A DNA stretch of 64,000 nucleotides, from the sequence record PP456878.1; one strand, given 5' to 3'. Under the pieces are notes generated by a model. It made no database searches and had not been told where the DNA came from. It saw only the letters and a list, made by a program, of their open reading frames with translations. Shown one piece after another: positions 6,430 through 59,480 of this stretch. A program made the translations under genes and the position numbers. Each line of letters opens with the position of its first letter. Position 1 is the first letter of the stretch. This DNA is from Pseudomonas phage vB_PaePAO1-KEN19.

Positions 6430-6449
6430 GCCCTCCCCGAAGGGAGGGC
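6430..6449 (-). terminator. hairpin gccctcccc-ga-agggagggc
   Basis: Member of the repeated GC hairpin family, downstream of gene 6553..6933. Confidence 0.6.
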
Positions 6450-8659: not shown

Positions 8660-10186
8660 TTAATATTTCAATAGACTATTGATAAAAGCATTAGGGTCAT
8701 AACGGTTATTTGAAAAAGCCGCCATTACATCACACCCTGGCTGATCTTTAAATCTGATATCTTCAGGAATATCGAAGTCAGGGAACATTAGTTTAATATA
8801 CTCCCTAACCTCTTGATCTCGTAGATATGGAATCTCCACCATGTAATCAACGCGACCTTTCCTTAGAAGTGCTTTATCAATATTCTCAGGATGGTTTGTA
8901 GTTAGAATGGTCATAGTCTCATCTAGTGGAACAATGCCATCTAGCCCATTTAATAGAGCTGACAAAGTTAATCCGCTAGCTGGTTGTTCATACGTGATTC
9001 CATTCTTCATGCACTTCTTTAATTTCCACCATCGGCGAATTGTGGTAAATAATGGATCTTTTTCATCGGCCCATTTTGAAACACCCAGTTCAGCCATAGC
9101 ATAAGCACTTATCCCAAAACCTTGATCATCGCTATTTTCATCAAAGATATAGATGGTGTCATTAAACCCAACTACAGAGTATCCTTCATAGTCATCTTTA
9201 AGATCAACCCATGCAGACGGATATTTTTCAATTAAATCAATAAAAGAATATTTCCTCTCTAATTCCTTTATCTCTTTATCTAGTTTTACAGGATCATTTA
9301 AAACACGATCTTTAACTGCCGGGGTATCATCGAAATCTTCAATTAGAAGAATATTACCTTTAGGTAGTGTAGTAAATGCCCGCCTAAGACTATCATTGGT
9401 CATAGAGGCTAATGACAGTGCACTAACATTTTTATTAAAATGTGAGGCAATCGCTTTACTGATTGAGGTTTTACCAGTACCAGGAGGACCTGTTAGAACA
9501 CAAGTGAATTTATAGGGTAGTCCACGATCATCGTACCATTTCCGATCAGAATAGAATTCTTCAATCTTATTAAGGAATTCTTCTTTGATCTCTTTACGCA
9601 AAATCACCGTGTTGATATCGCGTTTAGTAACTTCAATCTCATTGCCCCAACGGTTACCATCCCAATGTGAAATAGTCAGACCCCTTTCATTTGGGCGCCA
9701 ATGGTAAGCATCTACTAAATCAATAATTAGTTTACTACTCCTAGATAATCCACGGATAGTAATATCCATTTGATCTCGACTGGCATTTTGACTATCCCGG
9801 CGTGCTTTTACAAACCAGAATAACCTACCTTTAAACAGAAAGAAATGTAAGCCAAAACCAACACCAATTTTCTGTTTAGTTGCACTATAACTTTGCTCAT
9901 CAACATTAGTTGAAAAACGTCGATTAAATCCAGCTAATGGCTGCTTAATATACCATTCCATGAAACAATCAAAGTTCTTCTCGTTCAGCCCATTACCCAT
10001 GTTGGTAATATGTAGACTAACTGTAAACTGATTTAATGCGAACATAGCTAGTTTACTTGGTAAGCCTCTTAGAGTGGTCCAGAATAAACCACCAATTGCC
10101 ATTCCGATAGCTCCACCCATAACCATATTCTTCTGAGAGATATCGATGAACATGGCGTAATATTGCAATAAGGTTTCTATAATCAT
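8660..10186 (-). CDS. Bcs1-like AAA+ ATPase with N-terminal transmembrane segment (508 aa)
   Basis: N-terminal TM helix MVMGGAIGMAIGGLFWTTL. Walker A VLTGPPGTGKTS. Walker B ILLIEDFDD. Sensor-2 region ILTTNHPENIDKALLRKGRVDYMVEIPY, matching the Bcs1 signature TTNHxExLDxALxRPGRxD. The ATGA start overlaps the upstream stop. Confidence 0.8.
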   Translation of the reverse strand: MIIETLLQYYAMFIDISQKNMVMGGAIGMAIGGLFWTTLRGLPSKLAMFALNQFTVSLHITNMGNGLNEKNFDCFMEWYIKQPLAGFNRRFSTNVDEQSYSATKQKIGVGFGLHFFLFKGRLFWFVKARRDSQNASRDQMDITIRGLSRSSKLIIDLVDAYHWRPNERGLTISHWDGNRWGNEIEVTKRDINTVILRKEIKEEFLNKIEEFYSDRKWYDDRGLPYKFTCVLTGPPGTGKTSISKAIASHFNKNVSALSLASMTNDSLRRAFTTLPKGNILLIEDFDDTPAVKDRVLNDPVKLDKEIKELERKYSFIDLIEKYPSAWVDLKDDYEGYSVVGFNDTIYIFDENSDDQGFGISAYAMAELGVSKWADEKDPLFTTIRRWWKLKKCMKNGITYEQPASGLTLSALLNGLDGIVPLDETMTILTTNHPENIDKALLRKGRVDYMVEIPYLRDQEVREYIKLMFPDFDIPEDIRFKDQPGCDVMAAFSNNRYDPNAFINSLLKY

Positions 10187-10968
10187 ACTAGCATCCCTCT
10201 GGATAGCTTAGGAAAATATTGTCCACAGATCATGTATTCACGTTCTAGAAAATCTAGAGTATGACTTTCAAATATTTCACCTACATCTTTACCATAGATT
10301 TCCGTATACCCATTTTTGAATACGGCCATTACATAAACATCAGACATAGTCATGCCGTAGTTATAAATTTGATTGTCTCTGTATTTTGGATGAAATAGGT
10401 CATATAAAAAACGAGTCATTGAACTATTGGCAACAGTTGTCACCCCTTTCTGCTTTAAGGCATAACGTACTTGTTTAACCACATAGTTAACTTTAGAGCG
10501 CTCGCCAAATACCGTCAGTTTATCTACATTGCAATTACGATATCCCATAACATCAGGATTAGCTATCACGGTGTGTTTTGGAACACGTACATCAAAGATA
10601 ATGCCATTAGGGGATAGAATAATCTTTTCATGGTTAAATAGAACATGAAATAAATGTCGTTCTGGTTTAGTGATTTTGATACTTAACCCAATCACTCCAC
10701 TAATCTTTCTTTCTAGATCTTCTAGTGACTGCATCACCATGTGATATTGATTGAAGAAAGCATTGTTCTTATATTGATCTAATTCAAAGTATTTCCAACT
10801 TCCACGAAAATGAATAGCATGGCTTTTGGTATAATCTTTAGTTAATCGACACTTGAGTTTGTCAAACCAGCTTTCAAGATAACTCTCGACTGTAAAACCA
10901 AGTGGGTTATTATTAATAAGTTTATTGGAATATGATAAGCTAAATCTGTACATAGTTCGACGATGCAT
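10183..10968 (-). CDS. hypothetical protein (261 aa from the internal Met MHRRTMYRF)
   Basis: The track ORF 10183..11043 runs through the terminator hairpin at 11001-11016. The start was moved to the first Met downstream of the hairpin. Confidence 0.5.
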   Translation of the reverse strand: MHRRTMYRFSLSYSNKLINNNPLGFTVESYLESWFDKLKCRLTKDYTKSHAIHFRGSWKYFELDQYKNNAFFNQYHMVMQSLEDLERKISGVIGLSIKITKPERHLFHVLFNHEKIILSPNGIIFDVRVPKHTVIANPDVMGYRNCNVDKLTVFGERSKVNYVVKQVRYALKQKGVTTVANSSMTRFLYDLFHPKYRDNQIYNYGMTMSDVYVMAVFKNGYTEIYGKDVGEIFESHTLDFLEREYMICGQYFPKLSRGMLV

Positions 10969-23785: not shown

Positions 23786-23806
23786 GCCCTCCCGCAATGG
23801 GAGGGC
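23786..23806 (-). terminator. hairpin gccctccc-gcaat-gggagggc
   Basis: Identical 21-mer to the hairpin at 61931-61951. Confidence 0.6.
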
Positions 23807-46288: not shown

Positions 46289-46759
46289 TTACTCATTAAT
46301 AACAGATACTTTGTTATTCTCAGCTTTACTTTTAGCCGATAGCGCTAAATAGAGACAACTATACCAAGTGAAGTAGTCTCTTGGGAAATAGCCCTTTAAA
46401 AAAGTAGCCATATTTTTAGCACACGCTTTATTAATATTCTTATTAATGATTTTCCTCTCATTCATTATTTTACAAGCTAACAATGAATAATGTAGTTGAT
46501 TATTAGTACTTAGGTCTTCAAGGAATAGTTCTTTCACTGCTTGTGGCTTAGAACTTAGACACATTATAATTTCTTGAACAATATAGTCATTCGTCACTGA
46601 ATGAATAAGTTCAAGATAGAGTGAAAGATTAATCGAATACAGATCTTGTTTATTATTGAAAATGTATCCATTTCTATCTAATGTAACTAATTTCTTATAT
46701 GTGGGTGACATCTTTTCATTAACTATTTTATAAAAAAGACTAATCACTAATTTAATCAT
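46289..46759 (-). CDS. hypothetical protein (156 aa)
   Basis: Same-strand ORF. Confidence 0.5.
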   Translation of the reverse strand: MIKLVISLFYKIVNEKMSPTYKKLVTLDRNGYIFNNKQDLYSINLSLYLELIHSVTNDYIVQEIIMCLSSKPQAVKELFLEDLSTNNQLHYSLLACKIMNERKIINKNINKACAKNMATFLKGYFPRDYFTWYSCLYLALSAKSKAENNKVSVINE

Positions 46760-47889
46760 TTTAATAAACTTCCATCTACTCTATAAAAACCATGGACATC
46801 ACGTTTACCATTTAGACTAGGTATCTCATATGGATCAGTTGATGGATTTATCAGTTTGATTTTGCATTTATCTAAACGATCACGCAAGCTGATATTACCA
46901 GATAATGTTAAACCACGATACTGAATATCGACATTATCTAAATCAACAATGAGCGTACTAAGCTCCCCATTTGTTAAGTATGGTACCACAACCGAGTCAA
47001 TTACTTTTGCAATTGTTTTAGCTTCAATATGTATCCAGTTTCCAATATGATTAACAATCTCTGGAAACTTATCTAGATTTAATGTGATGCTATAGTCACA
47101 CCTAATTTTGATAATTCCATTACTTGACCAATAATGCATTGCACTATTGATGCCACCTAGATGATTCTCCATAGGTGTGAACTTTAGCCGTCCATTGAAA
47201 TCTATAAGCACTTTTGAGTTATCACACGCATCAACTATTCTTGACCGATACATAAACATATTAAGTAGTTTTCTATTGATGGCCACAGTTGTACCATTAG
47301 TTAGTTCAACTACGACGATATCACCATCTGCTTCATAAGACTCTACAATTAGAGTTATTGGGTTACTATCAAATTTGGAATTATCAGATAACCCATCCAT
47401 CACAATCTTGTAATTACTATTAACTGATTTAACTTGATCTATTAAAGATGGATCAATGAAATCCTTAGTGAGTGATTTTGATGTGAAAATTACAGCCACA
47501 TTTAGATCACTATTGATTGGTGTATTTACAGGTATGTATTGTTCATTAGAGAAATAGAATAATTTAAGATCTTTTATATCAGTTAGATTAATAATATCTA
47601 ATGAATTATTAGTTACTTTATACATGAATGAATCAAAATTTTGTTCAACAAAATAAATCATCCATGTCTTAGTTTCTTTGGTATAATAACCCCATGCTAA
47701 ACTTCGATCATGTAATTTACCAGATAGCATTCCTGTGAAGTAACCTGACAAAATATCAATTTTATCAACATCTACATTTTCTCTGATGTATTTATCATTT
47801 AGATCAGCTATCTTTTGTTCTAATGTATCTACCTTTTTTGGTTTGTTAAAACTATCAATAACATTTTTTAAGTACTTAAACATAATCAT
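46756..47889 (-). CDS. hypothetical protein (377 aa)
   Basis: Same-strand ORF with a 4-nt overlap. Confidence 0.55.
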   Translation of the reverse strand: MIMFKYLKNVIDSFNKPKKVDTLEQKIADLNDKYIRENVDVDKIDILSGYFTGMLSGKLHDRSLAWGYYTKETKTWMIYFVEQNFDSFMYKVTNNSLDIINLTDIKDLKLFYFSNEQYIPVNTPINSDLNVAVIFTSKSLTKDFIDPSLIDQVKSVNSNYKIVMDGLSDNSKFDSNPITLIVESYEADGDIVVVELTNGTTVAINRKLLNMFMYRSRIVDACDNSKVLIDFNGRLKFTPMENHLGGINSAMHYWSSNGIIKIRCDYSITLNLDKFPEIVNHIGNWIHIEAKTIAKVIDSVVVPYLTNGELSTLIVDLDNVDIQYRGLTLSGNISLRDRLDKCKIKLINPSTDPYEIPSLNGKRDVHGFYRVDGSLLK

Positions 47890-50230: not shown

Positions 50231-50815
50231 TCATCCCCAGAATCGGGCGATGAAGTGAACACACTCCATCTTTTTAGTTTCTTCCAGGAACTTGAAATAA
50301 CCATCATCCACACCATTGCTCAAAAATAGCTGGCGATAGGTTTTTTCCGAAATGACTTCACCATTAACATCTTGATCGAACATCGTTGGCTTCTGATCAT
50401 AATCGAAGTTCCAGAGGTCTTCCATATTGAAGATCATTGTAAGTGGGTACCAACCATCTTCACTATAATAGGCGTACGGTGTTAGATTGTCCTGTTTGGA
50501 ATTGACAATTTGTGAAAGGCGACCTTCAAAGTTGTTCCATACTGGATGCGAGTCATCACTGACGAGTGTACCAAATCCACAGCCTTTAAGAGTCGGTCGA
50601 CAGAATCGGTTGGTATACTCATTATTATCGGTTAACCAATCCCAAAGATAATAGCAACGGCTAAAGTTAAGAGCCTCGCATGTATGCATGTCAATGAATT
50701 TAAGTACACGTGCACCATCTGAAGAACGTGTGGAACGTTTGGTAACTACAGGGAAAACATCAATACCCATTTTAATCATCCATTTAACAGAATTTTTCTT
50801 GACCAGGGATTTCAC
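50231..50815 (-). CDS. hypothetical protein (194 aa)
   Basis: Same-strand ORF. Confidence 0.5.
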   Translation of the reverse strand: MKSLVKKNSVKWMIKMGIDVFPVVTKRSTRSSDGARVLKFIDMHTCEALNFSRCYYLWDWLTDNNEYTNRFCRPTLKGCGFGTLVSDDSHPVWNNFEGRLSQIVNSKQDNLTPYAYYSEDGWYPLTMIFNMEDLWNFDYDQKPTMFDQDVNGEVISEKTYRQLFLSNGVDDGYFKFLEETKKMECVHFIARFWG

Positions 50816-51128
50816 CGTCCATAACCTCTAGTACCCAACGGCCAGTCATCAACTCACGTGCAACATCACATGCCGCCCCGCCAATCTTCTCAGCTACTTT
50901 GTCCAGCAGAATTGGATGATAGTTGTGATCACCCATTACTGCGAACTTGCTTTCCCGTTCTATTTCAGCAAGTAAATCAGTGTCAACCCATTCAACACGC
51001 CCATCTGGATAGACAATATTAAGACCATACCACTTACAATAGTTTTCGATGGTTACAACTGGAATGTCATAAACACCTTTAAAACACAGCGGTAACTTAC
51101 GATCTGAGTAATGAATACGTTCAGTCAT
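50784..51128 (-). CDS. hypothetical protein (114 aa)
   Basis: Same-strand ORF. Confidence 0.5.
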   Translation of the reverse strand: MTERIHYSDRKLPLCFKGVYDIPVVTIENYCKWYGLNIVYPDGRVEWVDTDLLAEIERESKFAVMGDHNYHPILLDKVAEKIGGAACDVARELMTGRWVLEVMDGEIPGQEKFC

Positions 51129-51544
51129 TTGCCATTCACCAATTCAAAATAATTTTTTAGTAGATCTTCAGTTATTGGACGAGTATGTTCTTTAATCGAT
51201 AATTCCTTACTGTCCATTTCAATTTCATATTCAGAAATTTGAAATTGCTTATGTGGCACTGAACCATCTAACATAATGATCACATCTGCTAAGACTTGAT
51301 CCACTGCACATTGCAACAAATTATTAACTTGTTGATTATCAGTAAGTGAGTAATCATTGATGGCTTTATTACGAATGTCATATAGCCTTTTACTTAAAGG
51401 AGTATTACGTTCAATATGTTCTGTTCGCCACTCTTCTAAAATCTGTTCTGTACTTAGTTTGGATAATGACGATCCGCCAAGTTTCTTCCTAACTTCATTT
51501 TCTGAAAATGGTTTATCATGCCAGAATTGATGATCTTGTTTCAT
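51125..51544 (-). CDS. hypothetical protein (139 aa)
   Basis: Same-strand ORF with a 4-nt overlap. Confidence 0.5.
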   Translation of the reverse strand: MKQDHQFWHDKPFSENEVRKKLGGSSLSKLSTEQILEEWRTEHIERNTPLSKRLYDIRNKAINDYSLTDNQQVNNLLQCAVDQVLADVIIMLDGSVPHKQFQISEYEIEMDSKELSIKEHTRPITEDLLKNYFELVNGK

Positions 51545-51556
51545 AGTAAATCCTTT

Positions 51557-51814
51557 TTATAATTTAGAAATAGGTTTTAATACCGTATCTTTTTCATTGA
51601 ATGGATTATAAACTTTATGCGGATTAATCATCTTTAGTTGCTCATTCTTTCTTTCTAAATAAGCATCTGATGGTTTAATTGTTTTAGTTTTCCAAAAGTC
51701 ATCGATTGGTTTTAACTTATCCATTTCTGACTGTTCGTTATCAAAAGGAGTTTCCCGATTTCTTAGTCGGGTCGAATTGAATAGGAGTCGTAAACTCCCG
51801 TCGTAATTCCTCAT
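51557..51814 (-). CDS. hypothetical protein (85 aa); overlaps an out-of-frame upstream ORF
   Basis: GAGAAG lies upstream of the ATG. A 54-aa ORF in another frame (51741..51905) overlaps its first 74 nt. Confidence 0.4.
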   Translation of the reverse strand: MRNYDGSLRLLFNSTRLRNRETPFDNEQSEMDKLKPIDDFWKTKTIKPSDAYLERKNEQLKMINPHKVYNPFNEKDTVLKPISKL

Positions 51815-51905
51815 CTAAATTCTTCTCTTGAATTAATTTAGGAAAATGTTTTCTAACTGTTTTAATTGAAGCTATTAAATTGGAATAGGCTTTTTCTATG
51901 GACAT
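51741..51905 (-). CDS. 54-aa ORF overlapping gene 51557..51814 in a different frame; possibly a frameshifted or split gene
   Basis: Hand-translated MSIEKAYSNLIASIKTVRKHFPKLIQEKNLDEELRREFTTPIQFDPTKKSGNSF. Confidence 0.25.
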   Translation of the reverse strand: MSIEKAYSNLIASIKTVRKHFPKLIQEKNLDEELRREFTTPIQFDPTKKSGNSF

Positions 51906-51930
51906 TTTTATAACTCAAAATACATTATAA

Positions 51931-51954
51931 AGACAGTGGCTAAAACCACTGTCT
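51931..51954 (-). terminator. hairpin agacagtgg-ctaaaa-ccactgtct
   Basis: 9-bp stem. Confidence 0.45.
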
Positions 51955-52065
51955 AATTATTTCCCATAATGATCCACCTATAACTGCACTTAGAAAAAGC
52001 ATTTTGAATATGGGTGGTTCTTCTTGTTCATGTTGCATGTCTGATTTATTATTTTCGCTAGCCAT
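51940..52065 (-). CDS. small hydrophobic peptide (41 aa, MASENNKSDMQHEQEEPPIFKMLFLSAVIGGSLWEIIRQWF)
   Basis: Hand-translated. Runs into the hairpin. Speculative. Confidence 0.25.
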   Translation of the reverse strand: MASENNKSDMQHEQEEPPIFKMLFLSAVIGGSLWEIIRQWF

Positions 52066-52076
52066 TTTCTTTTACT

Positions 52077-52445
52077 CTAATGCCCACCATATTCTCTAAT
52101 TTTCTCACCATCCCAAAACTCATAACCAGTCATATTGTGATTAAATGGCTTTATTTTAGTAAACCCACTACGATAGATCCAGAAATGACCAGTGCCTCTT
52201 TTTAAGCGGCACTTATACATTGCTTTTTTCTCATATTCCGTGGGAGGGCTAATTTCTAGAACTTCAAGTTCATCACCCCGTATACAGAATAGCGCTGGTG
52301 GATGCTCACAGGATGCTTTCATACCGAGAACACCTGTTGACCAAACTGTATCACCTGGCTTAATAACAGTGATGTCATTTGATACTGGTATTACAGGAAT
52401 TGCACACATATTAGATGCTCCAGAGTAATTACCTCCAAAGAGCAA
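52077..52445 (-). CDS. hypothetical protein (122 aa)
   Basis: Same-strand ORF. Confidence 0.5.
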   Translation of the reverse strand: MLFGGNYSGASNMCAIPVIPVSNDITVIKPGDTVWSTGVLGMKASCEHPPALFCIRGDELEVLEISPPTEYEKKAMYKCRLKRGTGHFWIYRSGFTKIKPFNHNMTGYEFWDGEKIREYGGH

Positions 52446-52536
52446 ACACTGATATATTCATAGTCTGCTCTTTAGTAATATTTAAGAAGTTGGAATACTC
52501 ATACTGGAGATAAACTAATGTCCATTTATACTAATC

Positions 52537-53139
52537 TCATTGTGTATAATAATTCTTTTTGAGATTATCCATATCGTAAGAATCATGTTTGAACTCAAAC
52601 TTCTTAGCTATCTCACTCGAAAAAGCTTGTTTACGTTTTTCTTCTTGTTCACGGATATCGTAAGGACCATTCTCTTTAACAAGATATTTTTTATACGGCC
52701 CAGTTCCTTGGATATATCCATCAGGAATAATGGTTGTGAGATATTTAGCCTCTACCAACCGGATGCACCGTCCATAACCAACTTCATTGGCATGACGAAC
52801 TTGGATTAGTTGTCTATTCTTGGCAATACGTTCAGATATGCATGGGAAGTAAACCGGATCATCTCCTTTTTTACAGTTACCCATATCAACCTTTGCGTAC
52901 AGAATTTTTCTATGATTGGCTTCGAAGAAAGCCCGAGCTTCACGAATACGTTGGGACCGAATAGCTTCCTTAGTTCTGACATTCTTTAGATGTGCAGGTT
53001 GTAAAAAAGGATTCATCTTTCGCACGTGACGTTGGATAAGTTTTGTCGTGTAATGAGGTGAATCATTAGCCATAGCCAGTAGGCTATTGTACATCTCAAT
53101 CGACATGATTACTTGCTGCGGGTCATTATTGCGCTGCAT
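52537..53139 (-). CDS. hypothetical basic protein (200 aa), N-terminal paralogue of 27791..28174
   Basis: Shared N-terminal about 75-aa domain. Confidence 0.5.
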   Translation of the reverse strand: MQRNNDPQQVIMSIEMYNSLLAMANDSPHYTTKLIQRHVRKMNPFLQPAHLKNVRTKEAIRSQRIREARAFFEANHRKILYAKVDMGNCKKGDDPVYFPCISERIAKNRQLIQVRHANEVGYGRCIRLVEAKYLTTIIPDGYIQGTGPYKKYLVKENGPYDIREQEEKRKQAFSSEIAKKFEFKHDSYDMDNLKKNYYTQ

Positions 53140-53246
53140 GCTGATCTCCGTATGTGAAATAATGCTTTACTTTAAGGTCATCAGGATTATAAATAACACG
53201 TTGGAATTCATGTTTCTTCGCTAGTTTAAAAGCAGCTTACTTTTCC

Positions 53247-54347
53247 TTAGAAACCTACACGACTTGCTTTGCGTGGGCTACTGCAAGAACTAGTATTCAA
53301 TGCTTCAGCTAAAGTAAGATTATTACCGACAAACTCAACTGGATCTAGACCATTAGCTAAACGAGCTGCATTCGCTTGTTCAGCAGTAAGTGTTTTGAAG
53401 GTAAGAATATCGAAAGCACGGCCAGGTCGAACTAAAGCTTCATCAACATCACGAAGAGTCGGAAGATTAGTAGAAATGATAATCTTGGTCTTAGTAGATA
53501 CTAGACCAGCTGTAGCATTTAATAGCCCTGACATATTACTATTACCATCTACACGTTTAGCCACCATTTTATCAGAGTCTTCTGTAATAATGAGTGAATT
53601 ATCCTCAACACCACGAATAAAATTAGTCAAACCGGCGTGGCCAAGTACATCATCTTGATCAGCTAGATACACATTACGATCATTATAACCACGAGCCCGA
53701 ATAATCTCATTGATATAATTAGACTTACCAGTACCAGGAGGACCAATCAATAGTAGAACATTAGATTCAGATGCAGCGAATTCAGTCCAGATTTCAGCTG
53801 GAGATCGATCTAGGAATGGATACATTTCCATCATATTTGGATTGTAGTTACGAACAGAAATAACTTCACTAAAGCTATATAGTTCATTATTTTGATAGTT
53901 AACCCGAATTCTTTTAATACTAGGTGGACGAGTCTGATCAAATACTTCTTCAAAACGTAATTTAAATACTTTGATCAGTTCTTCATTGGAGTATAATCTA
54001 AAGTTCTGACTAGTGGTACCTTCCATTCCATTCATTAGGAAACCAATGATTCCTTCATCATCTAGTAATGCAAAACCACCACTAATTCTGAATGCTTTCA
54101 GATTTAAAGGGCTTATAACTTCATCACATAGTTTGTAAATTTGTTCTTTGATGAATTCTTTTCTATCAACTCCAAAAGGATAGTGAATACGTAGATCTTC
54201 ACTATCTGAACTAATTCCCTGTTCATTAAGAGTATAGCGATATGCATTGGAAATTGCACGGCCATTATCAACCTCCATAGCAATGGAGATAAAACGATCA
54301 ATCCACTTCTGCTGGACTAACGTAAGTTTGCTATTACGATAATTCAT
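53247..54347 (-). CDS. Bcs1-like AAA+ ATPase, soluble paralogue (366 aa)
   Basis: Walker A LLLIGPPGTGKSN. Walker B SLIITEDSD. Sensor-2 region IIISTNLPTLRDVDEALVRPGRAFD, the same TN-x-P-x-LD-x-AL-x-RPGR signature as the gene at 8660. Confidence 0.75.
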   Translation of the reverse strand: MNYRNSKLTLVQQKWIDRFISIAMEVDNGRAISNAYRYTLNEQGISSDSEDLRIHYPFGVDRKEFIKEQIYKLCDEVISPLNLKAFRISGGFALLDDEGIIGFLMNGMEGTTSQNFRLYSNEELIKVFKLRFEEVFDQTRPPSIKRIRVNYQNNELYSFSEVISVRNYNPNMMEMYPFLDRSPAEIWTEFAASESNVLLLIGPPGTGKSNYINEIIRARGYNDRNVYLADQDDVLGHAGLTNFIRGVEDNSLIITEDSDKMVAKRVDGNSNMSGLLNATAGLVSTKTKIIISTNLPTLRDVDEALVRPGRAFDILTFKTLTAEQANAARLANGLDPVEFVGNNLTLAEALNTSSCSSPRKASRVGF

Positions 54348-54393
54348 TTGATGTTCCTTTTCTAATTGATAATCTAATTTGAGACGATATAAA

Positions 54394-54413
54394 CCCTCCT
54401 ACTAAGAGGAGGG
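54394..54413 (-). terminator. hairpin ccctcct-actaag-aggaggg
   Basis: GC stem followed by tttatttt. Confidence 0.55.
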
Positions 54414-54450
54414 TTTATTTTGGCTATTATAACTAATTCATTTGAGAAAA

Positions 54451-55104
54451 TTAATTATTATATTCATCCATCAATTCAGGTAGACGGCTATCTCTAGGAT
54501 CTAAGATTTCAGACCAATCAATTGGCATATATGGCTCATCAGATTCATTTTTATTTAACCATTCTTCTAGTCTCTTTACATCATCGGACCAGTATAGGTT
54601 ATACATAGTTGGCACATTTGCATCTAATGCCAACTGCCACGCTGTATTAGTACCACCACTAATTACAGAGGTTGGTGTCTTTTGTTCACCGTATGCAATA
54701 ATAGTTGAAACAGGTTCACGTAAAGTATGGCCATGAATTTGAAATACATTACGAGTATGTAGTTCAATACCTGTTCTACCTAAACCATTGAAACTTCCCC
54801 GAGCTGCACAGGCCATTGCCATAGCTGTGGGAATGGTATCAGTATATACGGAGGCATCATGAAACCACGCTAGATTCTCAATTCGTCTTCCAAGAAATCC
54901 ATTTCGAATAATGTAAATACGACTTTCTACTGTATCCCATTTATCAGACTGAATTGCACCATACCAACCAGCTCTATCTGATCCATATGCATCGCCTGAT
55001 GAAATACCTATACCTAGATCAACAAATGTTCTTCCTGCGCGTATCATCAATTCTAGGGCCCATGTAGGGGCATAGCGACTACCGACAATAGCTGTCATTG
55101 CCAT
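54451..55104 (-). CDS. Rossmann-fold protein of the SLOG superfamily, DprA/Smf- or LOG-like (217 aa)
   Basis: IVGSRYAP...LGIGISSGDAYGSDRAGWYGAI resembles the DprA GS...SGxAxGxDxxAHxGAL core. ISGGTNTAWQLAL resembles the LOG PGGxGTxxEL motif. Confidence 0.5.
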   Translation of the reverse strand: MAMTAIVGSRYAPTWALELMIRAGRTFVDLGIGISSGDAYGSDRAGWYGAIQSDKWDTVESRIYIIRNGFLGRRIENLAWFHDASVYTDTIPTAMAMACAARGSFNGLGRTGIELHTRNVFQIHGHTLREPVSTIIAYGEQKTPTSVISGGTNTAWQLALDANVPTMYNLYWSDDVKRLEEWLNKNESDEPYMPIDWSEILDPRDSRLPELMDEYNN

Positions 55105-55814
55105 TATCTAACCCTCATTAGAAGACGGATATCACCGTACTTAAGAACGGCATTTCGGACTTGATAAATAAAAGGTTTAAATTCTTTTCGCTGTTGATCA
55201 GCCGTGAGTGTATAAGTTACTTTGATAGGTTCATTAGGAACATTGCAGAAAGATAGATAACGCGATACTCGACGTAGATTACGTAGGTGATTCTTACCAC
55301 ATTTAGGCCCGACTCGTTGTAACCGACCGTCGATAACCTTCCAATCATAATTAGCTTTAAGGTTTAGAGAATAAAAACTTTCAGTTAAATTCTTATAATA
55401 CTGTAATTGTTTTTGAGAGATTTTATTAATTTTTGGTTCATCTGTTACAAGACGTGGGCTATACCGTGAATAGCAATCTGGTTCTGACATACGATCCCAG
55501 GACATATAAGTATATAGACTCATATATACTGTTTTAGTAACTGGTTTAAGCTCACTCATACCTTTTAGAATAGCTTCACCACTAATCCATGCATCACAGC
55601 GTGGATCATCATCATAACTACTCCACCATTCTGGTTTCTTTTTCAGATCATCAGGAACACCATTATGGTAAGCAAATGGTTTTACATCCCAATAATTGCG
55701 AATATCAAGTAGATATGCATAAAGATCATAATTCTGTGTTAGTTCAATATCTTCGATACCAATCCATTCATTATTTACTTTAGCTTGAGTTTCTAAATAT
55801 ACATAATCACCCAT
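55104..55814 (-). CDS. hypothetical protein (236 aa), coupled to the SLOG-like gene
   Basis: Its stop overlaps the downstream ATG (TAATGG). Confidence 0.5.
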   Translation of the reverse strand: MGDYVYLETQAKVNNEWIGIEDIELTQNYDLYAYLLDIRNYWDVKPFAYHNGVPDDLKKKPEWWSSYDDDPRCDAWISGEAILKGMSELKPVTKTVYMSLYTYMSWDRMSEPDCYSRYSPRLVTDEPKINKISQKQLQYYKNLTESFYSLNLKANYDWKVIDGRLQRVGPKCGKNHLRNLRRVSRYLSFCNVPNEPIKVTYTLTADQQRKEFKPFIYQVRNAVLKYGDIRLLMRVR

Positions 55815-56018
55815 TTTCTTTATTTCCTGTATTAGATTAATATAAATGTTTTATAACAACTATTTCAATATTGAATAACGTATTATTGGTTGTTTTAATT
55901 TACTACTCAACCTGATAATGTGTAATACGTCTATCTATATATCTCTTTTCTCTGGTGAAGAGCATTAGCATTATTCCAAGGTAGAGTCCTTATTCTATTA
56001 AACATATGAGTAAATAAT

Positions 56019-56040
56019 CCCTCCCCAATAAAGGGGAGGG
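56019..56040 (-). terminator. hairpin ccctcccc-aataaa-ggggaggg
   Basis: 8-bp G/C stem. Confidence 0.55.
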
Positions 56041-56056
56041 TATATGTTATCTTAAT

Positions 56057-56458
56057 TCATGCTTTTGAAAGATCATATTTAATAGCTTCATCTTTCATAG
56101 GAGTTAATACAATAGTCACTTTTTCAAAACCATGTATATCCCTACCATTATAAGAAATATCAATACTCTCCCAATCCTGGTTAACTACTTCAGCATGAGG
56201 AATATTTTTAATATTGATAGCATCTGTTTTATCAAACCATTTAAAAACCTTTGGGTTAAATACAAGTTCGAAAGTAGTTTGATATGGATAGCTTTTCTGT
56301 TTAACAAGCCTACTAGATGCTAGTGATGTATTCTCAATGTTTCGAATAACATCAATCATTGCTTTACGGATAGTAAGTAATTTACTTTTCAGAACCAAAT
56401 CAATAAATGCTGGATCAGTTGTCATTACTTCTTTTACAGATGGAAATGTGATTTCCAT
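56057..56458 (-). CDS. hypothetical protein (133 aa)
   Basis: Same-strand ORF. Confidence 0.5.
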   Translation of the reverse strand: MEITFPSVKEVMTTDPAFIDLVLKSKLLTIRKAMIDVIRNIENTSLASSRLVKQKSYPYQTTFELVFNPKVFKWFDKTDAINIKNIPHAEVVNQDWESIDISYNGRDIHGFEKVTIVLTPMKDEAIKYDLSKA

Positions 56459-56622
56459 AGCATCCTCTTATAGGTTAATTATTAAAAGATAAATCATAAT
56501 CACTTTGTCTGCGATTCGGATTAACAGGATCAGGATATTTTCCAGTTTTGATAACTTCTTTTATAGCTCTAAAATCACGTTCTAGAAAATCTAGTTTTTT
56601 AACTAACTCTTTTTCTAATTCT

Positions 56623-57018
56623 TTATTGAGTAGTCTTCTTAATTTGCTCATCTACGTATACTCTTACAATGAACCAATTGATTAGGCCAAAACCTTTTGG
56701 TGTGATGGTAATGTCATCTTTATATCCATTTTTAGTGATTACATTACGTAATACTTTAATTGCTTCAGGTGGAATAAGATTAGCATTACCGGTAACACTA
56801 TACTCGAAATAATAACCTACACCTGGTAAATAACCTGATGCAATCTGGTTAGTACCTGTGATATTACTAACGTGTTGGAAGTCACTAAAAGCATTCTTGT
56901 AGAATAACAAAATATTAGGAATTACTTCATCCCTAATAGTAGAACTAGTAATGGCATCCGCCGATGGAAAATAAGGTACTAATTCATCTGTTACATTGGT
57001 GCTATTAATATCGGACAT
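56623..57018 (-). CDS. hypothetical protein (131 aa)
   Basis: Same-strand ORF, the last gene of the long minus block. The promoter motif is upstream. Confidence 0.5.
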   Translation of the reverse strand: MSDINSTNVTDELVPYFPSADAITSSTIRDEVIPNILLFYKNAFSDFQHVSNITGTNQIASGYLPGVGYYFEYSVTGNANLIPPEAIKVLRNVITKNGYKDDITITPKGFGLINWFIVRVYVDEQIKKTTQ

Positions 57019-57064
57019 AATCTTTTCCTCATTATAAAAGGATAAATATCTTTATGGTAATCCT

Positions 57065-57098
57065 GTAATATAGATTTAAATTAATTTATAATGAATGG
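57065..57098 (-). promoter_or_regulatory. conserved early promoter (family 2 variant)
   Basis: The + strand reads gtaatatagatttaaattaatttataatgaat. Confidence 0.35.
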
Positions 57099-57101
57099 CA
57101 T

Positions 57102-57126
57102 AAAGGAGCCCCTGGTGGGCTCCTTT
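57102..57126. terminator. hairpin aaaggagccc-ctggt-gggctccttt
   Basis: 10-bp stem at the boundary between the minus block and the divergent + block. Confidence 0.45.
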
Positions 57127-57127
57127 A

Positions 57128-57300
57128 ATGTAATAGGTCCGACCCCTATCTAGAGGTCGGTGAGTAGCAAGGCACCGTAGTTGGGGTTCGTGTCGTTCCT
57201 GACGATACTTTAGTACCCCGGTTTATTTACGACTGGATCACCCCCTTAAAGTGCAGTGCGTTTTACGCAAACTGCCTTGCTCTATATCATTGCACTGTGC
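57128..57300. ncRNA. GC-rich, highly structured non-coding island (candidate ncRNA or structured leader/attenuator)
   Basis: No ORF. Local GC is far above the genome average. Predicted helices: ccgacc/ggtcgg (57137-57161); a long-range pair agcaaggca (57165-57173) with tgccttgct (57274-57282) enclosing ggggt/acccc and gtcgt/acgat helices; gcagtgcg-tttta-cgcaaactgc (57250-57275); and an alternative pairing of cagtgc with gcactg (57291-57296), followed by gtattttta. Confidence 0.35.
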
Positions 57301-57368
57301 GTATTTTTATTCGTTAGCTAATCTTATGACTTAGAGTTATATTTACATACCCCTTAAGGAAAAATGCA

Positions 57369-59480
57369 ATGATAGACTCATTTAGGAAGCTAATGGGCTC
57401 GCTATCAATTACTGAAACTGATCAAGAAATTATCATCAGTGGTTTTGATGGTGCTGCATTCATTAGAGATATTAACAAGTATTGGCGAACCACTAAATTA
57501 GCTACGCAGTTATTTAACACGGTTAGTCGTCGTAGTATTTCATTTTATAAATTCTTTGCTCCTGAAATATATTACATGCTAGAAGCAGTAAAGAATTATA
57601 GAAGTAGATACATCTCTATTAAAACTGTTAATGCCATCCGTGAAGCAATGCTTCAATATACCTGGTTAAAAAATACTCGTCCTGTAGATACCAACTCTGT
57701 ACCAGGTAGACTCAATTTCAAGATGTTAGACAAATTGACATTTACACCAGATGAGTCTCAAAAAGCTTATTTTGAAAATTATAATTATCGAATTGACCAG
57801 TATGGTTTACGTGGTGATATTGTTGCAGGTAAACCTGGTACTGGTAAGACATTCATGACGATGGCTATTGCTGAAATGGTTGAGTCGGATATCATTATAG
57901 TTGTTTGTGAAAAGAAGTCTATTGATCTAATATGGAAGCCATCTATTATTGAGATGTATAAGGAAAGACAAAAAGTATGGTCGACCATTGATGATAAAGC
58001 CTACAACGGTCAAAGAATACTTATATCCCATTACCAGGCGCAAGATAAAATAATTGATCTATTAAGAAGCGGTATATTCAAAGGTAAGAACATTACGGTG
58101 ATTCTGGATGAATCACACAATATGAACGATCCTAATTCTGCACAATCTCTTAAGTTCCAGCAAATATGTTTTATGTCTAACTCTAATAACAGATTATTAG
58201 CGTCAGGTACCCCTGTTAAAGCACTTGGTTCTGAATTAGTAAGTGCATTAAGAGTATTAGACGATCTCTTCACCAATGAGGTTGAAGAACGTTTTAAGAA
58301 AGCATTTGGAAAAGAGACACAGAAAGGATTAGATATTGTCCAACATCGCTTTGGGTTAATTGCGTACGTCATTGAAAAGAAAGATACTGAGGTTTTACCA
58401 CCGAGGATAAAAGCGTATCGTATCAAGATACCAAATGGATCACAGTATACTCTTAATGCCATTAAACGTGATTGTGAAGCTTTTATTAGAGAACGTGTAA
58501 AGTTCTATGCTGCGCGCCGACCAGAAGATGAGAAGTATTGGGCTAAACTAATGGCGATACACGAGAACTCTCTTAAGACCCAGGCGCAGAAAGATGGTTT
58601 CGCTCGCTATAAGAATTTGATTAAAATAATTCAGAAGAATCAAGACCCGCGATACATTGGTGAAGAAATTAAAGAATCTAACCAATATGAAAAAATGTTT
58701 ATAGAGCCAACTTTACCTCGTAATGAAATAGCTGCTTTTAGAGATATTAAATCAGTTATAAAATACGTTATGCTAAAGATACAAGGTGAATGTTTGGGAA
58801 GGGTTTTAGGTGCTAAACGCATTCAGTGCCATGTGGACATGGTACCGTATATTGACTGGGTTGGTATCACTGAATCAACTATGAAGAAAACGATTGCATT
58901 TACATCGTTTGTTGAGGTTGTTGATACTGTTGATAAGTACACCAATAAATTAGGTATGCATCCGGCGGTGGTGTATGGTAAAACCAATGACAATTTACCT
59001 CAAATAATCAGTAGATTTGAGAAAGACCCTAAATTAAATCCATTGGTAGCTACATATGCTTCCCTTTCAACAGCGGTCCGTATGACGATGGCTGATACTA
59101 TGGTGACAATTAATTCACCGTTTAGACATTACATTCTAGAACAAGCTATTGCTCGAATTTACCGTAAAGGTCAGGATTCACAAACAGTCGTATATCAATG
59201 TACTCTCGATACAGAAGATGAACCGAATATCTCAACAAGGTCAGATGACATTCTAAAATGGAGTCAGGCAATGGTTGAAGCTATTATGGGTATTAAATCT
59301 CCATTTGAGATCACAGAGTCATTAGAAAGTTATGTTGATAAAAATAATAATTTTGATGAAAATAAAATCATTTATCAGATGCTAAAAGAATCATTTGAGA
59401 AGTATGATATCGCAATTGATTTTAATGACTTTGATACACGTATGTATAAACCATATCAGCCCGCATATATGCGGTTTTAA
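57369..59480 (+). CDS. SNF2-family / superfamily-2 DNA-dependent ATPase-helicase (703 aa)
   Basis: Walker A GKPGTGKT. DExH box VILDESHN. Motif III LLASGTPV. Motif VI QAIARIYRKGQ, which is SNF2-like (QAxxRxxRxGQ). AAGGA lies upstream of the ATG. Confidence 0.75.
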   Translation: MIDSFRKLMGSLSITETDQEIIISGFDGAAFIRDINKYWRTTKLATQLFNTVSRRSISFYKFFAPEIYYMLEAVKNYRSRYISIKTVNAIREAMLQYTWLKNTRPVDTNSVPGRLNFKMLDKLTFTPDESQKAYFENYNYRIDQYGLRGDIVAGKPGTGKTFMTMAIAEMVESDIIIVVCEKKSIDLIWKPSIIEMYKERQKVWSTIDDKAYNGQRILISHYQAQDKIIDLLRSGIFKGKNITVILDESHNMNDPNSAQSLKFQQICFMSNSNNRLLASGTPVKALGSELVSALRVLDDLFTNEVEERFKKAFGKETQKGLDIVQHRFGLIAYVIEKKDTEVLPPRIKAYRIKIPNGSQYTLNAIKRDCEAFIRERVKFYAARRPEDEKYWAKLMAIHENSLKTQAQKDGFARYKNLIKIIQKNQDPRYIGEEIKESNQYEKMFIEPTLPRNEIAAFRDIKSVIKYVMLKIQGECLGRVLGAKRIQCHVDMVPYIDWVGITESTMKKTIAFTSFVEVVDTVDKYTNKLGMHPAVVYGKTNDNLPQIISRFEKDPKLNPLVATYASLSTAVRMTMADTMVTINSPFRHYILEQAIARIYRKGQDSQTVVYQCTLDTEDEPNISTRSDDILKWSQAMVEAIMGIKSPFEITESLESYVDKNNNFDENKIIYQMLKESFEKYDIAIDFNDFDTRMYKPYQPAYMRF

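Follow-up and report, generated by a model that had tools for sequence, protein, structure and literature searches.

Neighbouring SLOG and Bcs1-like AAA+ genes in the phiKZ 205-209 stretch are probably independent accessory genes rather than a conflict system

Does the adjacency of a SLOG/DprA-like Rossmann protein and a Bcs1-like AAA+ ATPase in a Pseudomonas jumbo phage mark a nucleotide-signalling conflict system, as an earlier reading of this DNA (hereafter the original prediction) proposed? We addressed this question for positions 52537-56458 of a window of 64,000 nucleotides (the whole stretch of DNA that was analysed) from Pseudomonas phage vB_PaePAO1-KEN19 (PP456878.1). These positions correspond to PHIKZ205-209, i.e. 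genes 205-209 of the Pseudomonas jumbo phage phiKZ (gp205 to gp209 below), and the window has the opposite orientation to the phiKZ reference numbering. Pseudomonas phage PaZh_1 is 100% identical across the gp205-209 stretch, and 48 records of the phiKZ genus match it, most of them at 98% identity or above. The five minus-strand open reading frames (ORFs) of the original prediction are all in the ORF list at the coordinates it had named:

56057-56458, minus strand: PHIKZ205, 133 amino acids (ORF and phiKZ annotation), function unknown, phrog_24055
55104-55814, minus strand: PHIKZ206, 236 amino acids, basic (isoelectric point, pI, 8.9), phrog_17909
54451-55104, minus strand: PHIKZ207, 217 amino acids, stand-alone SLOG-superfamily (DprA-clade) Rossmann domain
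53247-54347, minus strand: PHIKZ208, 366 amino acids, soluble classical-clade AAA+ ATPase
52537-53139, minus strand: PHIKZ209, 200 amino acids, basic (pI 9.6), function unknown, phrog_18482

The reading that we favour, with moderate confidence, is that gp206, gp207 and gp208 are independent, separately inherited, dispensable accessory genes and make up no SLOG-AAA system; three unrelated genes would have become adjacent by chance in the genus Phikzvirus. At the level of a system, the proposed operon-encoded SLOG-plus-AAA conflict system finds essentially no support, because the neighbours are unlinked in related phages and two terminator-type hairpins lie within the stretch.

Comparative genomics did not bear out the expectation that these neighbours are conserved together. 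In related chimalliviruses the homologues of gp206, gp207 and gp208 are found 1-7 kb apart, reordered or absent, and in the four genomes compared gene by gene they have 5-11 genes between them, stand in another order or are missing. Ten genes stand between the gp206 and gp207 homologues of 201phi2-1, which is without gp208; the gp208 and gp207 homologues of Phabio are eleven genes apart; PA1C has gp208 seven genes ahead of gp207; and the closest relative outside the genus (a 195-kb contig) encodes a gp207 homologue with 64% identity, a gp206-like protein five genes upstream of it, and no local gp208.

The neighbours of three metagenomic gp208 homologues are unrelated, and of 29 IMG/VR loci that encode distant relatives of gp208 (matched in the AAA half), none has a gp207- or gp206-family ORF within 10 kb. 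Out of 80 gp207-family loci, a full-length gene of the gp208 family lies within 10 kb in six, never adjacent, and a gp206-family gene lies within the same distance in five. All of these loci are on chimallivirus contigs of ~305-325 kb, and the six with gp208 are Pseudomonas-type contigs with gp208 upstream of gp207, the order opposite to that in phiKZ. The phyletic patterns differ as well: the gp207 family is found in at least 833 phage records (jumbo, T4-like, rV5-like, PAK_P1-like and N4-like phages) and the gp208 family in 178, and the host genera differ.

According to tblastn, the 195-kb relative and PA1C both have a gp209 homologue after the gp207 homologue and one small ORF (~100 amino acids). 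The corresponding regions are:

L007 (PA1C), 8817-10574: gp207...gp209 region (tblastn)
L012, 6001-8015: gp207...gp209 region (tblastn)

With this arrangement in the relatives, gp208 fills the slot in phiKZ that elsewhere holds the ~100-amino-acid ORF. Judged from these alignments, gp207...gp209 looks like the older arrangement and gp208 like a gene inserted later, within the phiKZ genus.

The second line of evidence comes from two hairpins within the stretch:

54394-54412, minus strand: terminator-type hairpin CCCTCCT-CTTAGT-AGGAGGG then TTTAT, in the gp207/gp208 gap; fold -18 kcal/mol, z -5.2
56019-56040, minus strand: terminator-type hairpin CCCTCCCC-TTTATT-GGGGAGGG, in the gp205/gp206 gap; fold -19 kcal/mol, z -3.5

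The terminators placed at 54394 and 56019 by the original prediction do exist, but they do not bound the five genes: they lie inside and bracket only gp206-gp207, and therefore split the stretch into gp204-205, gp206-207 and gp208-209 (PHIKZ205 is the final gene of the upstream unit gp204-204.1-205). In phiKZ numbering the two hairpin sites are 214,096-214,117 and 215,724-215,742. With two internal phiKZ-type terminators, and with the adjacency lost outside the genus, the single five-gene operon has to be given up. Both hairpins are G+C-rich and belong to a family of palindromic hairpins, CCTCC(C)...(G)GGAGG, with 14 copies in the window (0.1 expected by chance); a conserved hairpin terminator motif has been described in the literature for phiKZ and 201phi2-1. 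Several family members run directly into the phiKZ early-promoter motif ...TATATTAC, so that terminator and promoter are packaged as one cassette. Members of the family (CCCTCCC-TTCG-GGGAGGG and variants) are seen, e.g., at 6432, 20182, 23788, 30138, 33199, 33643, 48319, 54395, 56020 and 61933, and those at 23788, 30138 and 33643 are directly followed by TTTTTGTATTTAAA-N11-12-AGyTATATTAC, the phiKZ early-promoter motif. A scan for sigma-70 promoters returned 19 sites (27.6 expected) and is uninformative; phiKZ transcribes with its own RNA polymerases. Translational coupling is found only between gp206 and gp207 within the stretch, where, as predicted, the gp206 stop overlaps the gp207 start (TAATG) with GAGGG upstream.

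If the genes are independent, each has to be read by itself. The description of the 217-amino-acid gp207 as SLOG/DprA-like stands by hidden Markov model comparison (weakly against Pfam, strongly against PHROGs) and by fold; strict membership of DprA or LOG does not. gp207 matches PF02481 with 21.1 bits, below the gathering threshold of 29.6 and over residues 3-54 only, and TIGR00732 with 13.6 bits against a cut-off of 191, and so fails both curated DprA/Smf thresholds; it matches the 'DprA-like' phrog_768 end to end (E-value 7e-49), and PF02481 matches at sub- or near-threshold level were obtained for 19 of 32 diverse gp207 relatives. AlphaFold2, given a 32-sequence alignment, predicted with confidence a single Rossmann-type domain and a short C-terminal tail (predicted local distance difference test, pLDDT, 96.3), i.e. 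the Rossmannoid alpha/beta fold of the SLOG superfamily (DprA, LOG, YpsA, MoCo-carrier, ThsA-SLOG), which gp207 has in common with the SLOG sensor domain of ThsA from Thoeris (PDB 7UXS). The glycine-rich loops of the superfamily, SGDAxGSD (36-43) and GGTNTA (150-155), are invariant across the 32 relatives, and the invariant residues as a whole concentrate in VGSR, SGDAxGSD, ARGS, LHTRNxxQ and GGTNTA, which are DprA-like signatures.

gp207 differs from DprA/Smf proteins (PF02481; PDB 3MAJ, 4LJK, 3UQZ), which combine a SAM-like N-domain, a Rossmann domain and a C-terminal winged helix/DML1: it is a single domain without the N-domain or winged helix, it has a chimallivirus-specific acidic tail, and its gene belongs to a phage and has no relation to competence. 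Relative to LOG phosphoribohydrolases (cytokinin-riboside 5'-monophosphate; PDB 9US2, 5WQ3), the motif PGGxGTxxE becomes (S)GGTNTAx(Q/R/K/I/T) in gp207. The position of the LOG catalytic Glu after GGTNTA, in a register set by motif position and not by superposition, is Q, R, K, I or T and never acidic in the 32 relatives, which makes LOG-type chemistry unlikely. The last ~30 residues (54451-54560) make up the acidic tail, which follows the pattern E.D.PY..IDW..I..P.DPRL; among the 32 aligned sequences the closest relatives have it (phiKZ, phiPA3, 201phi2-1, Phabio and Psa21 included) and more distant members do not, and it may serve for docking of a partner or for localisation.

gp207 keeps the motifs GSR, SGxAxGxD and RN, and is probably a factor that binds single-stranded DNA (ssDNA) or a nucleotide, which the canonical pocket of the SLOG fold would hold. 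In this role it would be a non-essential helper of phage recombination or replication, e.g. by passing ssDNA to a phage RecA-like recombinase. gp207 fits the conserved jumbo-phage DprA/Smf SLOG protein of Iyer et al. 2021, who proposed it to be an additional ssDNA-binding protein in recombination (PMC7824862), and it sediments in high-molecular-weight fractions in the Grad-seq data of Gerovac et al. 2024 (PMC10914614). In PAK_P1-like, rV5-like and T4-like phages the neighbours of gp207-family genes are ligase, helicase, ribonucleotide reductase, PhoH and thioredoxin genes; an AAA partner is absent.

The main competing reading of gp207, which we consider unlikely, is that it acts alone in counter-defence, either as a surrogate antitoxin or decoy for PRTase/DprA-like (PRTase, phosphoribosyltransferase) toxin-antitoxin systems (ShosTA/PsyrTA) or by binding or hydrolysing immune signals that are nucleotides or derive from NAD. 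This would be compatible with its fold, dispensability and wide distribution: ShosA neutralises ShosT without binding (PMC12961424), the family is distributed very widely among virulent phages, phiKZ does not need gp207 on PAO1, the gene lies in a genome arm suspected of anti-defence genes, and the residues of the pocket show no variation at all, as would be expected for a specific ligand. However, gp207 resembles ShosA/PsyrA no more closely than it resembles DprA, and over the same 50 residues, the extra domains of ShosA and DprA are missing from it, and its neighbours elsewhere are the replication and nucleotide-metabolism genes listed above and not anti-defence islands. Compared with the DprA-like antitoxins ShosA and PsyrA (PDB 8ZVA, 9VZO), gp207 is ~100 residues shorter, has no adjacent PRTase toxin and is encoded by a virulent phage rather than a host defence island. 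We found no literature support for this role, and no paper on phage-encoded SLOG anti-defence proteins. Its extension to the whole family, in which stand-alone DprA-clade SLOG proteins would be widespread counter-defence proteins (orphan antitoxins against PRTase toxins, or proteins for signal sequestration or cleavage) and not recombination mediators, is in our view quite improbable.

A further rival is suggested by the TAATG overlap, namely that gp206 and gp207 are a functional pair that acts at the ribosome or on RNA, with gp208 unrelated; we give it little credence. In its favour, the two genes form their own hairpin-bounded unit, both proteins are found in heavy sedimentation fractions, and the homologues are within 10 kb of each other in the five chimallivirus loci. 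On the other hand, they are ten genes apart in 201phi2-1 and five in the closest relative, 75 of the 80 gp207-family loci have no nearby gp206-family gene, gp206 expressed alone sediments with ribosomes, and stop-start overlaps are common among neighbouring genes here (e.g. 50784-51128 with 51125-51544).

gp206 itself co-sediments with 50S ribosomal fractions, both in infection and when expressed alone (Gerovac et al. 2024, PMC10914614). Pfam and PDB searches gave no relative for it; a word-index search gave only 2 relatives and an exhaustive search 47 representative ones, which make up an uncharacterised phage family with the consensus MGCDIH...RxYxLFAxLAxVRNY...PRGxPxD...DxHSxSWL...VRxVFxFDN. 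MGCDIH, at the very N-terminus, and DxHSxSW have the appearance of sites for metal binding or catalysis. In phiKZ gp206 the D/H of the first motif is gone (MGDYVY), and so is the HSxS motif (PRCDAW). Because of the loss of these motifs, phiKZ gp206 is probably a degenerate, inactivated-looking member of its family and a binder rather than an enzyme. The chimallivirus members in general, phiKZ included, have lost MGCDIH/DxHSxSW and gained a basic insertion (KLxKYxxR...), a combination compatible with an enzyme that turned into a ribosome binder.

The 366-amino-acid gp208 is, as predicted, soluble and Bcs1-like. Its AAA domain matches PF00004 (E-value 3.8e-8), its best matches among solved structures are Bcs1, and its AAA core is nearer to Bcs1 than to other AAA clades. 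The protein consists of a family-specific alpha/beta N-domain (~1-165), to which no family was matched, a Bcs1-like ATPase core and a very short lid. It has Walker A GPPGTGKS (202-209), an 'ED' Walker B (256-257), sensor-1 N294 and the arginines R307 and R310 of the second region of homology (SRH); G202, G205, G207, K208, E256, D257, N294, R307 and R310 are invariant in 43 gp208 relatives, in agreement with the classical AAA clade. In the alignment of gp208 with Bcs1, the 'ED' Walker B is common to both ('LEDID/TEDSD'), as is a short non-aromatic segment at the usual site of pore loop 1. gp208 differs from mitochondrial Bcs1 (PDB 6SH3, 6UKO, 6U1Y) in that it lacks the BCS1_N domain (PF08740 was not found at E<=1) and the transmembrane anchor; no N-terminal hydrophobic helix or anchor was found, with a maximum Kyte-Doolittle mean of 1.14 over 19 residues.

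The other ATPase of the window, the "first" Bcs1-like ATPase meant by the original prediction, is:

8660-10186, minus strand: PHIKZ286, 508 amino acids, Bcs1-like ATPase

PHIKZ219 (46756-47889) was considered for this role and ruled out, since no AAA domain was found in it. PHIKZ286 matches PF08740 (BCS1_N) with 43.9 bits, above the threshold of 28.1, and PF00004 in two separate parts, its AAA domain being split between Walker B and the SRH by an insertion of ~115 residues. Near the N-terminus, residues 21-39 form a hydrophobic, Gly-rich segment (Kyte-Doolittle mean 1.51), and the PADLOC matches of the protein are IetA and TRIP13. On this sequence evidence PHIKZ286 is a genuinely Bcs1-like protein, encoded by a phage that forms a nucleus. 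To call gp208 its paralogue is too strong: hhalign covers 59 columns at the SRH only, BLASTP adds Walker A only, so that the alignment is limited to Walker A and ~60 residues at the SRH, and the N-domains are unalignable. The 'sensor-2 signature' said to be shared by the two proteins is really the SRH arginine-finger motif (ALVRPGR / ALLRKGR), which is generic in classical AAA proteins (Cdc48, proteasomal ATPases). The idea of an expanded, phage-specific Bcs1 family is likewise weak, as gp208 and gp286 have only the AAA core in common and Bcs1-like ATPases of jumbo phages have been reported before: Iyer et al. 2021 described AAA+ ATPases of the BCS1 type in each of the three groups of jumbo phages and suggested that they translocate folded proteins in head assembly (PMC7824862). 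PHIKZ286 fits that description, whereas gp208 is a BCS1_N-less relative and not an orthologue, and the same survey draws no link between BCS1 and DprA/SLOG proteins. The full-length gp208 layout is also found in jumbo or large myoviruses that form no nucleus (CBB, GAP32, RP12, ME3 and Campylobacter phages), and is therefore not specific to chimalliviruses.

The family resemblance, together with the sedimentation of gp208 and gp286 in high-molecular-weight fractions (Gerovac et al. 2024, PMC10914614), led us to propose that gp208 is most likely a ring-forming protein remodeller. It would form rings in which ATP drives the remodelling or movement of folded protein substrates, and its private N-domain would recognise the substrate or an adaptor. 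We note that the gp208 gene alone (53292-54366) has 96% DNA identity to positions 217790-218863 of Pseudomonas phage vB_PaeM_PS119XW (MN103543), a 301-kb phage in which the genes flanking the gp208 homologue have no match at megablast level; the gp208 of PA1C (a Pseudomonas jumbo phage of ~300 kb; 304 kb) is only 72% identical in protein. This near-identity of a single gene, next to unmatched flanks and the more distant PA1C protein, suggests a recent lateral exchange of the ATPase gene among jumbo phages.

The least probable reading, and a very doubtful one, is the original one, in which gp205-209 form a five-gene nucleotide-signalling conflict module with the SLOG protein sensing or processing a nucleotide and the Bcs1-like AAA+ protein as its partner or effector: the genes are adjacent only within a single genus whose genomes are nearly identical, they are dispersed, rearranged or lacking in 201phi2-1, Phabio, PA1C, phiPA3-type and metagenomic relatives, co-localisation is 0/29 and 6/80, a terminator hairpin separates gp207 from gp208, and no defence-system model is matched significantly. 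The PADLOC matches of gp207 and gp208 were dismissed as signs of defence-system membership, since they cover only the P-loop or the N-terminal 50 residues.

Several points weigh against treating the genes as fully independent or against the functions given above. A subset of Pseudomonas chimalliviruses keeps gp206, gp207 and gp208 within one region of ~8 kb, which leaves room for a loose functional relationship. phiKZ terminators often permit read-through, so that gp206-209 may be co-transcribed. With a pI of 6.4, the core of gp207 is close to neutral, which is atypical for a DNA binder, and the functional assignments of gp207 and gp208 are drawn from family resemblance. Finally, the stretch is located in an arm of the genome suspected by others of carrying anti-defence loci.

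This arm is a large, dispensable accessory part of the phiKZ genome. The phage can do without genes 206-216, and an orf208::Tn mutant remains viable; the entire arm, orf184-304, can be dispensed with, and the authors speculate that host-interaction or anti-defence genes are found there (PMC12676376). In RefSeq, PHIKZ208 is labelled 'AAA family ATPase' and PHIKZ207 'DprA-like DNA recombination-mediator protein'. With these annotations, with both families in the jumbo-phage survey and with gp206-216 shown to be dispensable, the features themselves were already known.

As for the remaining genes of the stretch, Pfam and NCBIfam searches gave no match for PHIKZ205, and a match of gp209 to Phd/YefM (E-value 0.083, 20 residues) was dismissed as noise. 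Rfam and tRNA scans of 51500-57600 gave nothing above chance. Just beyond the stretch, a G+C-rich structured intergenic segment (57085-57345, minus-strand reading; fold -77.7 kcal/mol, z -4.2) lies between the helicase gene gp203 (plus strand, start 57369) and gp204 (minus strand, start 57018). It ends in the hairpin GGAGCCC-ACCA-GGGGCTCC then TTTAT, after which the early-promoter-like TATATTAC is found at 57065-57072. No Rfam or tRNA match was obtained for this segment, which may be an unannotated small RNA or leader.

The useful outcome is thus a negative one: the SLOG/AAA+ adjacency in phiKZ is read here as an accident of one lineage, and should not be passed on as a candidate conflict system. 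phiKZ has both a membrane-anchored Bcs1-like protein, gp286, and a soluble relative, gp208. The gp207 family, wide in virulent phages, uncharacterised and with a strictly invariant pocket, is a cheap target for biochemistry with ssDNA or a nucleotide as the candidate ligand.

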